Position numbers and translations under genes: made by a program. A stretch of 47,718 nucleotides of DNA from Candidatus Shapirobacteria bacterium. Lineage in GTDB: Bacteria; Patescibacteriota; Microgenomatia; UBA12405. The DNA lies in NCBI GenBank assembly GCA_017992115.1, contig JAGOPG010000001.1, positions 1 through 47,718 on the forward strand, in the 5' to 3' direction. Shown here one piece after another: positions 2,769-7,221 of the stretch (its first letter is position 1; the number at the start of each line of letters is the position of its first letter). The notes below the pieces were generated by a model. It searched no databases, was not told the origin of the DNA, and was given only the letters and a program-made list of their open reading frames with translations.

Positions 2769-3212
2769 ATGGCATTTAGTATCAATATCGCAATCATTAC
2801 TGGAAATCTTACTCGTGATCCAGAACTTCGTTATACTCCTTCCGGGACTGCAGTATGCAGTTTTGGTGTCGCCACTAATCATTCAATTAAAAAGGATGAC
2901 CAGTGGACAGATATTCCCACTTTCCACAATATTGTTGTTTGGGGAAAACAAGCTGAATACATCAGTAACACCTTAAAAAAGGGCATGAAAGTATCACTTA
3001 CTGGTCGTATAGATAATCGTCAATATGACGCTAAAGACGGCACTAAAAAATATATTAGCGAAATTATTGCAGACACTGTTGTACCTTTTACCGACAGAAA
3101 ATCAGTTGATACTGCAAGCACTGAGGTAGACAACACTCCGGCCCAGGATGCAGGTGCTGCAACAGAAGACAAGGTGGAGGATATCGTTATTCCCGACGAA
3201 ATGCCTTTCTAA
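2769..3212 (+). CDS. ssb: single-stranded DNA-binding protein
   Basis: OB-fold start ITGNLTRDPELRYTPSGTAVCSFGVATN, an acidic disordered tail, and a C-terminus ending DEMPF (canonical SSB tip D-D-I-P-F type). Confidence 0.93.
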   Translation: MAFSINIAIITGNLTRDPELRYTPSGTAVCSFGVATNHSIKKDDQWTDIPTFHNIVVWGKQAEYISNTLKKGMKVSLTGRIDNRQYDAKDGTKKYISEIIADTVVPFTDRKSVDTASTEVDNTPAQDAGAATEDKVEDIVIPDEMPF

Positions 3213-3414
3213 CCTCGTCTAATTTCTCTTCGAAAATTTTAACATACTTGATATTTTTGTGTCCTGTTTCTATACAATGTCCTAACCTTGTTTCTATTGT
3301 GGCAGATAACTGAGCGCAATCAATATTTCCTTCATTTTCTATTCTATAAATATCTCCCTCCCAGCCACAATCATTACATGTTGGTTTCACTCCGATTATT
3401 TCTTTTGGTGACAT
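3187..3414 (-). CDS. hypothetical 75-aa Cys/His-containing protein
   Basis: ORF track. A near-consensus promoter sits directly upstream. The N-terminal CNDCGWEGD resembles the core of the 36-aa peptide at 4339..4449. The 3' end overlaps ssb by 26 nt. No family recognised. Confidence 0.5.
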   Translation of the reverse strand: MSPKEIIGVKPTCNDCGWEGDIYRIENEGNIDCAQLSATIETRLGHCIETGHKNIKYVKIFEEKLDEVRKAFRRE

Positions 3415-3540: not shown

Positions 3541-4239
3541 ATGTCATATAAAACATTGAAGGTATTGGAGAATTTGGTGTTAATCTGTGATACAAAAATC
3601 GAAAATACTAGAGAGGTAAAACGAAATCTAACGGAAGCGTATCAGACCAATAAAAAATTTTTTAACAGCGATACCCCTACGATTGCTGTTACTTTTGTTT
3701 ATAAAAGAACAGATCTTGAAAAAATTGTTCATCATCAAACAAAGGATTGGGAAGTCGCCTATGCATATAACAACGATGAGCTAAAAAATCAGATTGTTAT
3801 TTTTAGTCCCGAAGTTATTGAAACAGTATCCCGAAACACTAAAAGTTATTTTCCTTACTTGCTGACACATGAGATGGCACATATTTTTACTAATAATGTA
3901 TGTATTTTTTTTCAACCCAGATGGTTATATGAAGGCTTGGCTGGGTTTGTGGCCAAACAATACACAAAAATCAAAAAAATATCAAAATTTGTAGAATTTA
4001 AATTTATTCATGATAAAAATGGATGGAATAATAATCCAAGTTATGCCCAAGCTTATTCTTTTACCAAGTTTCTAATTGACAAATACGGAGAAAAAAAAGT
4101 ACTCAATTTTACAATTGAGAGATTAAGTAAACTGAATAGATATCACAAATTTGAGGAATTTAAAACGGAATACGACGACTTTTTTAAAGAGAAATTTGAG
4201 AAGGTAAGTGAGCTTTGGAAACAAAATACATTTTATTAA
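3541..4239 (+). CDS. clan MA (gluzincin) zinc metallopeptidase, Peptidase_MA_2-like, cytoplasmic
   Basis: HExxH in LLTHEMAHIF, followed by the third-ligand motif WLYEGLAGF. No signal peptide or TM helix. Confidence 0.65.
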   Translation: MSYKTLKVLENLVLICDTKIENTREVKRNLTEAYQTNKKFFNSDTPTIAVTFVYKRTDLEKIVHHQTKDWEVAYAYNNDELKNQIVIFSPEVIETVSRNTKSYFPYLLTHEMAHIFTNNVCIFFQPRWLYEGLAGFVAKQYTKIKKISKFVEFKFIHDKNGWNNNPSYAQAYSFTKFLIDKYGEKKVLNFTIERLSKLNRYHKFEEFKTEYDDFFKEKFEKVSELWKQNTFY

Positions 4240-4245
4240 TTATTT

Positions 4246-4289
4246 CCGGAACCTGCCTATTGTATAAGATACCTTTCGGCAGGTTCCGG
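4246..4289. terminator. 12-bp perfect stem-loop between convergent genes (possible bidirectional terminator or mRNA 3' stabiliser)
   Basis: CCGGAACCTGCC (4246-4257) pairs with GGCAGGTTCCGG (4278-4289) around a 20-nt loop. It starts 7 nt after the stop of 3541..4239. There is no clean U-tract on either strand. Confidence 0.5.
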
Positions 4290-4291
4290 TT

Positions 4292-4324
4292 GTGGTACTC
4301 ACAAACATTGTCTATGAGTACCAC
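4292..4324. terminator. 10-bp perfect stem-loop immediately downstream of the 36-aa peptide gene
   Basis: GTGGTACTCA (4292-4301) pairs with TGAGTACCAC (4315-4324) around a 13-nt loop. It lies 14 nt after the peptide stop codon on the minus strand. Confidence 0.45.
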
Positions 4325-4338
4325 TCTAGAGTTGGATA

Positions 4339-4449
4339 TTAACCTTCTTTGTCACACTGATCGCTGTCACAGCCAGAGCCTTCACACCAGCCATCACAGT
4401 CATCGCAGTTTGACGTTAACATGGTTATGATCCCTTCAAGTTGGTCCAT
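4339..4449 (-). CDS. 36-aa Cys/Asp-rich peptide, candidate RiPP precursor (below the 60-aa cutoff of the ORF track)
   Basis: Hand translation of the reverse strand gives ATG(4449) MDQLEGIITMLTSNCDDCDGWCEGSGCDSDQCDKEG TAA(4341-4339). A perfect SD AAGGAGGTG lies 6 nt upstream. The gene starts 18 nt after the radical SAM stop codon and is followed by two hairpins. Confidence 0.7.
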   Translation of the reverse strand: MDQLEGIITMLTSNCDDCDGWCEGSGCDSDQCDKEG

Positions 4450-4455
4450 TTTTCT

Positions 4456-4464
4456 CACCTCCTT
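4456..4464 (-). promoter_or_regulatory. Shine-Dalgarno site of the 36-aa peptide gene
   Basis: The reverse strand reads AAGGAGGTG, then AGAAAA, then ATG. This is the strongest SD I found in the window. Confidence 0.7.
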
Positions 4465-4467
4465 TCG

Positions 4468-5748
4468 TTACAAGAGTATTTGTTTATGCTTCAAATAGGA
4501 CACGACCTGTATTACTTTTTCAAGCTCAACTCCAAGAACCTTTTGGAACTCATCTATAGAAATCATCTCCTTTCCATTTTCGAACAATTTACTGAGCCTT
4601 TGGTCAACCGGCACCCAAGCACTAGTCGAAACAAACAACACTGATCCGAAAGGTTCAAGGCGTGTTTGCATCCTTGGATTTACCAAAAACTGGGTGTCTT
4701 GCGTTTGTGGTATCGGAACTTTGGGTAGGCCATGTTGTGGAATATATTTCTGATCACACATTGGATCGGCAGCCTTTTTTGATCCGAACGCGGTGAATGC
4801 ATCGGCCTTACAACCTCCCATGCAACGTGTCTTTATGGCACAACTTCCGCATACTTCAGGTAATAACACTTCTGACCGCCATTCCTCCATTCTTTTCCAA
4901 GCAAGTTGTAGACTCTCATCGATATTACCGTAGCTTTCTGATGCCCTATTACATGGTTTGACATTACCGTCAAAGCCAATAGTGCATGTGGTCTTCCCGG
5001 CAGTGCAGAACTTATATCCTTGAATTGGTATATGTCCTCCATAACTACATACTGGGTTTGCCTCCAGAGAGTTTACGTGCAGATCGAATTCTTTCCCAGC
5101 TATTTCTAGTTCCTCTTGCATCTGTCGAAATTCTGTCAGAGTCAATAGTTGACTGGTAAAGCCTCTTCCGGAAGAAGGATCCGAAGCTTTCGTAACTGCA
5201 AAACTCGGAAGGCCAAGTGATGAAACTAACGCTGCAGTTTGGTTAATTTGACTTAGATTGTATTTTGAAACAACCATATTTACATAAATTGGGAAGCCGA
5301 AACTTTTAGCCAGATTAATTCCATGGACTATTTTTCGGAGGGAACCCTTACTACCAGTAATTTGATCACATACTTTCGAATCACCTGAGGGTAGGGAAAC
5401 TAAAATTGACTTTATTCCACAATCCTTAAGAATTTTCGCTTTTCCTGGTGTCAGTAACGTAAGGTTACTATTCATAGAAACAGATACTCCGCCATCCGAG
5501 AGAGATTTTATATAGTCTCTTAGCTCCCTTATAACAACTAATGGTTCTCCCCCCGTAATAATGACAGAAAAAACTTTATTGCTTAGTATTTCCGATACTA
5601 TCTTGGGGTAAAGTGTAAAATAGTTGGAAGTAAGTGAACTAGTTGGTTGAACATCTCTCCAATAGTTGTAACAGTGTTTACAATTGTGATTACAAACGGG
5701 TGTTACTTCCCACTGGACTCCAATAGGTGCAGACAATGTCGTAAACAT
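4468..5748 (-). CDS. radical SAM / SPASM-domain peptide-modifying enzyme (RiPP maturase candidate)
   Basis: CX3CX2C at residues 19-26 (VCNHNCKHCY) and the SAM-binding motif ITGGEPL. Full SPASM signature: CTIGFDGNVKPC (GX4C) and CGSCAIKTRCMGGC (CX2CX5CX3C), plus a later Cys (DPMC). A roughly 85-aa C-terminal extension follows. SD AGGAG lies 8 nt before the ATG. Confidence 0.9.
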   Translation of the reverse strand: MFTTLSAPIGVQWEVTPVCNHNCKHCYNYWRDVQPTSSLTSNYFTLYPKIVSEILSNKVFSVIITGGEPLVVIRELRDYIKSLSDGGVSVSMNSNLTLLTPGKAKILKDCGIKSILVSLPSGDSKVCDQITGSKGSLRKIVHGINLAKSFGFPIYVNMVVSKYNLSQINQTAALVSSLGLPSFAVTKASDPSSGRGFTSQLLTLTEFRQMQEELEIAGKEFDLHVNSLEANPVCSYGGHIPIQGYKFCTAGKTTCTIGFDGNVKPCNRASESYGNIDESLQLAWKRMEEWRSEVLLPEVCGSCAIKTRCMGGCKADAFTAFGSKKAADPMCDQKYIPQHGLPKVPIPQTQDTQFLVNPRMQTRLEPFGSVLFVSTSAWVPVDQRLSKLFENGKEMISIDEFQKVLGVELEKVIQVVSYLKHKQILL

Positions 5749-5843: not shown

Positions 5844-5872
5844 ATTATATGCCAAAACATCCGGAAAATCAA
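5844..5872 (-). promoter_or_regulatory. sigma70-type promoter of the radical SAM/peptide operon (TTGATT-N17-TATAAT)
   Basis: The reverse strand reads TTGATT (5872->5867), a 17-nt spacer, then TATAAT (5849->5844). This predicts a roughly 90-nt leader before ATG 5748. Confidence 0.5.
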
Positions 5873-5995
5873 ATAATACAATCCTATAAGAAGCGAATAT
5901 TCAGTGTTATACACCTTAAAGGCTCTTTATAAAAGGTAATTGTTAAATATCAAAATAAAGTGTTAATTATTTTTGGAGTAGCTCTTTCATTTTTG

Positions 5996-6067
5996 TGACC
6001 CCACGGAGAATTGAACTCCGGTTACCAGGATGAGAACCTGATGTCCTAGCCACTAGACGATGGGGCC
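5996..6067 (-). tRNA. tRNA-Glu (anticodon CUC), no encoded CCA
   Basis: The reverse strand GGCCCCATCGTCTAGTGGCTAGGACATCAGGTTCTCATCCTGGTAACCGGAGTTCAATTCTCCGTGGGGTCA folds by hand into a 72-nt cloverleaf. It has a 7-bp acceptor stem, D stem GTCT/GGAC, anticodon stem TCAGG/CCTGG with loop TTCTCAT, and T arm CGGAG-TTCAATT-CTCCG. Confidence 0.9.
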
Positions 6068-6093: not shown

Positions 6094-7221
6094 ATGAATT
6101 TTAACAAATATCATCACCAATTGCTCCTTCTATTAATTACCTTTTTCTCCTCAGCTTTAATTTGGTTTTTATTTTACAAAAATATTCCTAGGTTTTTAGG
6201 CTTTCCAGCCACCAGTCTAGAAACTATATACGCCAATTACGATGGTCCCAATTATATGATTATTGCCAAGTGTGGATACAATAAGGATTGTATTCGTCAG
6301 CAATTTTCCCTCCCCTTGCCTCTAGAATATTACCCTGCACATCTTCCGGCATTTCCTCTGCTGATTAAAATTTTTTCACTTTTTTTAACCACTCCCAAAG
6401 CAATGCTTTTAGTTTGTCTATTAGGATCGGCATTTTTTACTTTATCTTGTTATTATTTTTTTCGATTATTTTTTAGCGAGAAAAAATCATTTTGGCTTTC
6501 ATTCTTAATTATTTTCTTTCCGGCCCGACTTTTTATCTTAAGACTGATAGGTGCACCTGAAACCTGGTTCTTGGGCTCAATCTTATTCTCCATCGTTTTC
6601 TTTAAGAAAAACAAATTCTTACCATCAGCTCTTTTTGGAGTATTTGCCCAACTCTTAAAAAGTCCGGGAATCTTGCTCTTTGTTGCCTACGCTTTTACTT
6701 TCTTGTTCGAATATATAAAAAGCAAAAAAATAAATAAAAATTATTTATGGTATTTGTTAATTCCAATTTCCGCCTTAGGAATTTTTTATCTATACTATCT
6801 ACAAACAGGGGATTTTTGGGCATATTTTAATTCTGGAGACAACATTCACCTGACGCCTTTTCCTTACCAAGTTTTTGTCAGTAACCGTTCATGGATTAGT
6901 ACAATTTGGCTGGAAGATATTATTTACATTTTAATTTTTTGCTTTTCTGCCCTAAAAAAATTATGGAAAAAATATTCTCGTGATATTGTTTTTATTTTTC
7001 CATTTGTTTTTACTCTTGCTACTATCATGGTGGCTCATCGTGACATCAGCCGTTATATTGCTCCAGTCTATCCCTTTGTTTTTCTCGCTTTTGGAAATAA
7101 AATTACCAAGAAAAAGAATCGTCTTCTCTTTTATCTACTTATACCGGCAGTTCTCCTTTATGCTATCAATTTTGTAATCGGCAATACTGCCCCTGTTGAC
7201 AACTGGACACCTTATCTTTAA
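6094..7221 (+). CDS. polytopic membrane protein, putative GT-C-type glycosyltransferase
   Basis: About 10 predicted hydrophobic helices with the loop ANYDGPNYMIIAKCGY. No specific family assigned. Confidence 0.5.
   Translation: MNFNKYHHQLLLLLITFFSSALIWFLFYKNIPRFLGFPATSLETIYANYDGPNYMIIAKCGYNKDCIRQQFSLPLPLEYYPAHLPAFPLLIKIFSLFLTTPKAMLLVCLLGSAFFTLSCYYFFRLFFSEKKSFWLSFLIIFFPARLFILRLIGAPETWFLGSILFSIVFFKKNKFLPSALFGVFAQLLKSPGILLFVAYAFTFLFEYIKSKKINKNYLWYLLIPISALGIFYLYYLQTGDFWAYFNSGDNIHLTPFPYQVFVSNRSWISTIWLEDIIYILIFCFSALKKLWKKYSRDIVFIFPFVFTLATIMVAHRDISRYIAPVYPFVFLAFGNKITKKKNRLLFYLLIPAVLLYAINFVIGNTAPVDNWTPYL

Follow-up and report, generated by a model that had tools for sequence, protein, structure and literature searches.

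An acidic, Cys-rich peptide encoded beside a radical SAM/SPASM maturase in Candidatus Shapirobacteria: a putative RiPP precursor with conserved Cys-acid dyads

What becomes of a 36-residue peptide in which each of the five cysteines is directly followed by an acid, and whose gene lies directly behind that of a radical SAM enzyme? The question is raised by one short gene in the window, the whole 47,718-nucleotide stretch of Candidatus Shapirobacteria DNA that was analysed. The gene, its parts and its ribosome-binding signal are located as follows:

Positions 4339–4449, minus strand: gene of the precursor peptide, 36 residues followed by TAA (ATG at 4447–4449, TAA at 4339–4341).
Positions 4408–4449, minus strand: leader of the precursor, residues 1–14, of which residues 6–11 form the recognition-like motif GIITM(L).
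Positions 4342–4407, minus strand: core of the precursor, residues 15–36, with five Cys-[DE] dyads.
Positions 4456–4462, minus strand: Shine-Dalgarno sequence GGAGGTG, separated by 6 nt from the precursor ATG and located inside the 18-nt spacer after the maturase stop.

Translation of the minus-strand ORF at 4339–4449 gives MDQLEGIITMLTSNCDDCDGWCEGSGCDSDQCDKEG. The Cys residues are at positions 15, 18, 22, 27 and 32, and the residues behind them are Asp, Asp, Glu, Asp and Asp, respectively; in total, seven Asp and three Glu stand against one Lys, and Arg is absent. A sequence-only reading of this DNA had described a very acidic peptide (10 Asp/Glu versus a single Lys) with an acid behind each of its five Cys and with C15..D19 as the sole CX3D fit; all of this was confirmed by the translation. 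The five-of-five pairing arises by chance in 0.2% of core shuffles (P ∼0.002) and in 0.07% of whole-peptide shuffles. Among the 2664 Met-started small ORFs (20–100 aa) of the 582-kb genome (G+C 35.7%), the precursor is the only one that contains at least four Cys plus at least three C-[DE] pairs.

Homologues of the adjoining maturase, collected from genome and metagenome contigs, gave a set of 169 loci, with the window included, and in most of them one short Cys-rich ORF lies ∼0–100 nt behind the maturase gene. The relatives keep an SD-like AAAGG(A)GG sequence ahead of the peptide gene, which in locus L087 starts with TTG. Within the last 16 codons, the window and L006 peptide genes show nine synonymous and five non-synonymous codon differences; in relatives of the window peptide, the codons for the conserved Cys, Glu and Gly residues differ mostly by synonymous changes. 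Owing to its placement after the maturase in most related loci and to the synonymous changes at conserved codons, the precursor ORF is a real gene under purifying selection. The precursor matched none of the NCBIfam families at E up to 10. Pfam and NCBIfam scans of the precursor and seven relatives returned no family, except for a weak match of one distant peptide (L114) to TIGR04117, at 15.6 bits versus a cut-off of 50; the window peptide does not match this model. The 18-nt distance between the maturase stop and the precursor ATG, in the same frame, is shared by the window, L086, L088, L089, L166 and L167. Stop-codon read-through at 4450–4470 would fuse maturase and precursor, but the distance is probably mere inherited spacing.

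The enzyme gene upstream of the precursor, and the promoter-like sequence ahead of it, are located as follows:

Positions 4468–5748, minus strand: radical SAM/SPASM peptide maturase, 426 aa (Pfam PF04055 and PF13186).
Positions 5844–5872, minus strand: promoter-like TTGATT-17-TATAAT, ∼100 nt upstream of the maturase start, a consensus match only (10/12).

In Pfam, the maturase matches PF04055 with an E-value of 1e-20 and PF13186 with 23.9 bits, versus a cut-off of 21.5. It has no N-terminal domain, and the radical SAM motif begins at residue 19. The cluster motif C19-x3-C23-x2-C26 is conserved in 99% of 114 maturases, the SAM-binding motif GGEPL (residues 66–70) is invariant, and the SPASM seven-Cys motif is present (C248-x12-G261-x4-C266, C300-x2-C303-x5-C309-x3-C313 and C331). 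One extra Cys, C234, is conserved alongside the SPASM Cys across the 114 maturases; the eight conserved Cys of this region could provide full ligation of both auxiliary clusters, leaving no open site. The auxiliary cluster of CteB has an open site.

Although the maturase matched 68 NCBIfam families, none of the matches came near its cut-off. The best is AhbD (114 bits versus 500); the sactisynthase models AlbA and StsB gave 52 versus 850 and 53.8 versus 625, respectively, and the SCIFF and QhpD models are absent among the best 25 of the 68 matches. The PapB model NF047865 gave 65.7 bits versus 340, and the relation to PapB at the family level that had been considered for this peptide is not borne out. 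As the maturase is below every curated family cut-off, its chemistry is not transferable by homology. The AlphaFold2 model of the maturase, built with 42 homologues, has a pLDDT of 95.2. Its nearest solved folds are SuiB at the top, SkfB, and then PqqE, anSME and TigE, with 15–20% identity; a PDB profile search concurs, with SkfB as a distant match (E = 6e-19).

Other radical SAM chemistry has to be weighed at this point. The enzyme might form a C–C or C–N crosslink at Trp21, epimerise residues or oxidise Cys, and the Cys-acid dyads would then bind a metal or Fe–S cluster in the product. SuiB, the top structural neighbour, is a Lys-Trp crosslinker; the best NCBIfam scores belong to AhbD, NirJ, MftC and PqqE, all of them non-thioether enzymes; the Trp before C-E-G-S is conserved in most near relatives, and the eight conserved Cys could leave no cluster site open. 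However, these similarity scores are all weak and generic for SPASM enzymes. Cys is common to all cores, including those of the acid-free clade described below, but Trp is not, being missing in L092/L093; the Cys density (∼21%) and the spacing of about 2–5 residues are like those of known radical SAM thioether substrates. We therefore regard such chemistry as distinctly improbable. With a SPASM maturase as the enzyme and Cys as the one feature that all core types share, thioether formation would be the leading chemistry; we lean towards it with moderate confidence.

How the maturase could hold its substrate is suggested by its C-terminal part:

Positions 4471–4701, minus strand: RRE-like domain of the maturase, approximately residues 350–426, three strands and three helices.

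The R363-x-E365-x-F367-G368 motif of this domain is invariant or near-invariant. Folded alone, the domain gave a pLDDT of 90.8, and in the fold search with it alone (88 residues), the PDB matches were almost all RRE, with TM scores of 0.50–0.56 and E-values of 0.07–1, weak as is usual for so short a domain; they include TbiB1 with leader, lasso B1, the PbtF RRE, LynD, McbB, ThcOx, MccB and MibB. In the PDB profile search, the RxExFGGIL motif of the domain aligns to the N-terminal RRE of SuiB. By sequence, no PqqD/RRE was detected in the domain with Pfam, and the PDB profile gave weak winged-helix matches. A profile of the domain identified 294 representative clusters in 1.84 billion proteins, most of them 420–470 aa in size with the domain terminal. 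According to these models, the maturase carries a C-terminal RRE fold, which is an unusual position.

The precursors also share a motif outside the core. G-[IVLFY]-[IVLE]-[STPNQ]-[LMIF] is located ahead of the core in 53 of 110 peptides, with a median start at residue 8; most other leaders contain looser strand-like variants, such as FFVNVY, FESLI, AILSM and VLSIV. The window leader has this motif as GIITM at residues 6–10, only four residues before the first Cys, which is the shortest distance in the range of 4–33. The leader had earlier been presumed to be short, and short it is; with the family hydrophobic motif at residues 6–10 and a partner maturase that has a C-terminal RRE fold, it nevertheless looks real and functional.

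On the other side of the precursor, two more features were noticed:

Positions 3541–4239, plus strand: clan MA zincin-like protein, 232 aa, convergent with the precursor; HEMAH, then E in WLYEGLAGF.
Positions 4292–4324 and 4246–4289 (span 4246–4324), no strand assigned: two adjacent strong hairpins between the convergent precursor and zincin genes.

The zincin contains the metal-site motif HEMAH-x16-E. With the Peptidase_MA_2 model (PF13485; cut-off 32.4), it scores 24.9 bits, below the cut-off, and its homologue in L115 scores 35.8 bits, above it. Matches to the zincin were found by tblastn beside the cassette in ∼45 loci. ORF clustering gave two groups of ∼230-aa HExxH proteins, which show relatedness in the region of the metal site (80% probability in hhalign) and together occur in 115 of the 169 loci. 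Of the 131 loci with at least 1.2 kb of downstream sequence, 103 contain an HExxH gene, in either orientation and with a median distance of 247 nt past the maturase stop. The zincin is thus the putative third gene of the cassette and the putative leader peptidase. No recurrent transporter or other gene was found beside the cassette by ORF clustering of the 169 loci; the lack of a transporter counts against the RiPP reading proposed below. As RNA, the hairpin region folds with −49.8 kcal/mol (z = −9.4); a simple scan found no canonical U-tract terminator, and the paired hairpins are probably a bidirectional terminator.

In the window, the maturase and precursor genes are neighboured by ssb, the zincin gene, tRNA-Glu and a membrane protein gene. 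Beyond the tRNA, positions 6094–7221 (plus strand) encode a 375-aa multi-pass membrane protein, which has no Pfam or NCBIfam match and is unconserved beside the cassette. A 75-aa ORF (3187–3414, minus strand) occupies the interval from ssb to the zincin gene and is present just in the window and in its 99% twin L086. This ORF had been proposed as a second substrate; the proposal was rejected, as BLASTP detected no similarity of the ORF to the precursor and L087, a relative with 82% identity, lacks it. Its CxDC-GW-EG resemblance is probably due to chance.

Given how the genes are linked, and given the RRE, the leader motif and the peptidase, it is very likely that MDQLEGIITMLTSNCDDCDGWCEGSGCDSDQCDKEG is the precursor of the adjoining maturase and that the locus is a RiPP cassette; the peptide is supported as a radical SAM substrate candidate. 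An unmodified, small acidic Cys-rich peptide that binds metal and has a radical SAM gene as its neighbour by coincidence was the other reading offered from the sequence. Five Cys and 10 acids would bind metals, and both CxxC and CX4C spacings are present. However, peptide and maturase are adjacent across 30–99% maturase identity and several phyla, the peptide core types track the maturase clades, the maturase has an RRE fold, the peptides have a leader motif in common that lies outside the Cys region, and the peptidase gene accompanies both peptide and maturase. As the peptide gene is tightly linked to those of the RRE-bearing maturase and the zincin in over 100 loci, the unmodified peptide is disfavoured, and we consider it extremely improbable.

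To which residue, then, would the Cys be joined? In the maturase tree, the window belongs to a clade of ten rows, with maturase identities of 48–83%. In the window peptide and the seven distinct peptides of its nearest relatives, every one of the 47 Cys has Asp or Glu directly behind it, and the same is true for all four Cys of the L168 peptide. Family-wide, 358 of the 666 Cys in 110 distinct peptides are of the C-[DE] type, compared to 157 expected from shuffled cores. The pairing, which the sequence-only reading had marked for checking in homologues, is therefore conserved. Among 86 acidic cores, +1 is the sole acid-enriched offset between −6 and +7, with 63% Asp/Glu versus a background of 27%. 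At every other offset in this range, the value is 20–31%; +4, the CX3D register of PapB, has 28% and is at background, so the donor/acceptor register is unlike that of PapB, as had been supposed. For 58% of the Cys, the first acid downstream is the +1 residue, compared to 26% in shuffles. When the +1 residue is not acidic, it is mostly Tyr, Asn, Gln, Phe, Val or His, and in most such cases Cys or an acid occupies +2. Overall, the acidic cores contain 671 acids versus 61 Lys/Arg, and Cys accounts for ∼21% of core residues.

The peptides of the near clade end with W-C-E-[GA]-S-x-C-[DE]-x-x-x-C-[DE]-x-E-G, which in the window core reads W-C-E-G-S-G-C-D-x-x-x-C-D-x-E-G. Upstream of this end motif are two to six CDxx units, whose number varies among relatives, resembling iteratively processed repeat RiPPs. 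In every near relative that has W-C-E-[GA]-S, the residue after Cys is Glu, whereas Asp and Glu interchange at the other sites; the acids after the first and the last Cys are both retained among near relatives. The retention of the first and last acids and the fixed Glu of W-C-E-[GA]-S suggest that the acids have a structural role and do not merely supply charge. The +1 rule suggests the Cys-acid dyad as the unit that is recognised and modified. Donor and acceptor inside one dyad, or an acid that is structurally integral, would fit the +1-only enrichment, the freely varying dyad spacing (2 to 6), the terminal acids that are kept and the one fixed Glu.

Our preferred explanation, in which we place slightly more belief than doubt, is that the peptide is a thioether-crosslinked RiPP precursor from a three-gene cassette, modified at its Cys-[DE] dyads. 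The leader (MDQLE-GIITML-TSN) would be laid with its hydrophobic strand motif on the β-sheet of the RRE, and the acidic Cys-rich core would enter the radical SAM active site. The enzyme would then act iteratively on the Cys-[Asp/Glu] dyads, abstracting hydrogen from the acceptor carbon and joining this carbon to the Cys sulfur, with a loss of 2 Da per link and up to five links in the window peptide. The likeliest acceptors would be Asp Cβ or Glu Cγ; the acceptor acid might be the one right after the Cys (CX0D/E, small ring) or one in the neighbouring dyad (variable ring). In the last step, the zincin would cut off the leader and release a rigid, strongly anionic peptide.

The most specific form of this model, in which every Cys is linked to its own next acid (CX0-D/E), would give a string of six-/seven-membered sulfur heterocycles on a polyanionic backbone; we consider it speculative and rather unlikely. 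To our knowledge, no such topology has been reported for a natural RiPP. If true, the CX0-D/E linkage would explain the +1-only enrichment, the freely varying dyad spacing (2 to 6) and the acids kept by the first and last dyads. As a published precedent for our preferred explanation, PapB joins Cys to Asp or Glu and accepts CXnD in vitro with n = 0–6, with incomplete reaction at n = 0 (PMC9413430). Further precedents are the enteropeptins (PMC12395415) and CrpC (PMC13692751), which are described below.

One clade of the family bears directly on the role of the acid. This maturase clade (SH-aLRT 100; L025, L028, L031, L036, L039, L042, L046, L048, L064, L074 and L142) is accompanied by peptides with a GYVSL leader and alternating Cys in the core ACYCNCGCAC[HY]VTG, which contains no acids; the member type is ACYCNCGCACHVTG. 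In L074, Asp is present at two intervening positions. When the maturases were searched for residues that track acidic versus acid-free substrates, no basic-residue switch was found, only N157 versus Ser. As a related maturase clade serves acid-free cores, the acid is not required for catalysis across the family.

Thioethers could accordingly be formed without the +1 acid as acceptor, either as sactionine-type α-carbon links or to other residues. An adjacent α link would possibly give a thiomorpholine-like ring, and the acids would have a role in recognition by the enzyme, in solubility, or in the binding of a metal or partner by the product. The maturase of the acid-free CYCNCGCAC[HY]VTG clade is closely related and shares the conserved residues; Tyr, Asn, Gln, Phe, Val and His at +1 would suit an α-carbon acceptor that is independent of the side chain; and the sactisynthase SkfB is among the nearest structures. 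A natural precedent is found in the enteropeptins, in which a radical SAM-made α-thioether joins adjacent residues in a six-membered ring (PMC12395415). However, the enrichment at +1 is specific for Asp/Glu, is 100% kept in the near clade and exceeds any need for solubility; Glu is fixed at one site while Asp and Glu interchange elsewhere, and the sactisynthase models are far under their cut-offs. We judge thioethers of this kind unlikely. If thioethers are formed, the candidate acceptors are thus three: the acid next to the Cys, that of a neighbouring unit, and an α carbon. That the acid side chain is the acceptor seems to us nearly an even bet, falling a little short of it; owing to the acid-free clade and the lack of a basic-residue switch in the maturases, an α-carbon acceptor or other chemistry may apply instead.

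To judge from its sequences, the cassette would act like a ranthipeptide/sactipeptide system, and by every model compared it lies outside the PapB, SCIFF, sactisynthase and CXXX-repeat families. Like PapB/PapA, which makes freyrasin, it has a radical SAM/SPASM enzyme of presumably iterative action and a core of repeats with many Cys and Asp, for which a carboxylate acceptor is plausible. PapA, however, has the CX3D pattern, whereas the acids here are enriched at +1 and do not exceed background at +4; the C-terminal RRE, the much shorter leader, the zincin partner and the CPR hosts are further differences. SCIFF systems of Clostridia (CteB/CteA, Tte1186) are similar in their SPASM maturase, short Cys-rich peptide, absence of a transporter and patchy occurrence in one group. 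Different from the maturase here, CteB carries its RRE at the N-terminus, and SCIFF cores are non-acidic and do not follow the C-[DE] rule; with respect to TIGR03973/TIGR03974, the precursor matches no NCBIfam model and the maturase has no N-terminal domain. QhpD, another radical SAM/SPASM enzyme, introduces multiple Cys-Asp and Cys-Glu thioethers into a single small polypeptide, QhpC. Unlike the window peptide, QhpC is the gamma subunit of quinohemoprotein amine dehydrogenase; it has a CTQ cofactor, and the distances between its Cys and acids are long and variable. The window locus has no dehydrogenase context.

The enteropeptins (KgrC) share with the proposed product a natural radical SAM thioether from Cys to its immediate neighbour (PMC12395415), but they are made by a Firmicute and contain just one ring, in which the Cys is linked to the α carbon of the residue ahead of it (Orn-Cys). 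CrpC is a ranthionine-forming enzyme that acts on C-X-X-Q/D repeats (PMC13692751). Cys-rich repeats beside SPASM enzymes are common to CrpC/CrpA (TIGR04463), to the CXXX-repeat targets (TIGR04115–04117) and to our cassette. Compared to the window precursor, CrpA is large, with a leader-like region of 47 residues, and the RRE of CrpC is N-terminal. Our literature search for this peptide/maturase family in CPR found no paper describing the family or its crosslinks.

CPR/Patescibacteria have tiny genomes (582 kb here) with few recognised specialised-metabolite genes, yet this 2.3-kb cassette is patchily kept across many lineages. The Cys-then-acid rule is simple and testable, and is unlike that of PapB, the characterised Cys-Asp crosslinker. 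With its C-terminal RRE and very short leader, the system is small and attractive for finding a new thioether register or radical SAM chemistry, and it would also be of use for peptide-stapling enzymology. The cassette is, moreover, a handle on what episymbionts secrete or deploy against hosts and competitors.

The UvrB protein encoded in the window shares 75–77% identity with those of Candidatus Shapirobacteria MAGs, which places the host among the CPR bacteria of the Microgenomates group. Within Patescibacteria, the maturase was detected in 11 of 401 sampled genomes at E ≤ 1e-50. Relatives are also present in MAGs labelled Woesearchaeota (DPANN archaea), Anaerolineae, Bacteroidota and gut Clostridia/Saccharibacteria, although many public MAG labels are unreliable. 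L007, L010, L021, L036, L170, L171 and others come from 'binchicken'/SRP MAGs that are labelled uncultured Gammaproteobacteria and contain CPR-like genes; the UvrB proteins of these MAGs are 78–81% identical to that of the window genome, and the labels are probably wrong. The region of the maturase and precursor (4200–5400) has a G+C content of 0.42–0.44, compared to 0.30–0.38 in the flanks and 0.357 in the genome, and tRNA-Glu(CTC) is located at 5995–6067, just upstream of the cassette. The higher G+C content, the adjoining tRNA-Glu and the patchy distribution (11/401) suggest horizontal acquisition of the cassette.

Not all loci show the standard arrangement. The first filter left ∼36 loci without a peptide; about ten of them end at a contig edge, and five have alternative starts or a lower Cys density. 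In L034, L038, L050, L147, L164 and L165, no recognisable Cys-rich short ORF was found within 600 nt on either side of the maturase gene. The HExxH gene directly follows the maturase gene in this group, and two of the loci are labelled Levybacteria-type; the substrate of this Levybacteria-like group may be encoded elsewhere or be of another kind.

Several variants of the precursor were also observed. The L121 peptide at 2224–2298, MTDVDGVVDISGGSDWGGDEGSGA, is like the L119 precursor minus an internal stretch that holds all its Cys, and it may be a decayed precursor. In L095 and L104, tandem precursor genes are located behind a single maturase gene; their leaders are similar and their cores are different. 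One clade from gut MAGs of animal and human sources (L057, L060, L061, L065, L067, L071, L076, L078 and L079) is labelled Clostridia, Eubacteriales, Saccharibacteria or Nanosyncoccus. In its peptides, an FFVNVY-type leader lies almost directly at the N-terminus and is combined with cores exemplified by C-F-[ST]-C-D-x-S-C-H-C-E-C-D-G-G-G-D-C-D-W-G.
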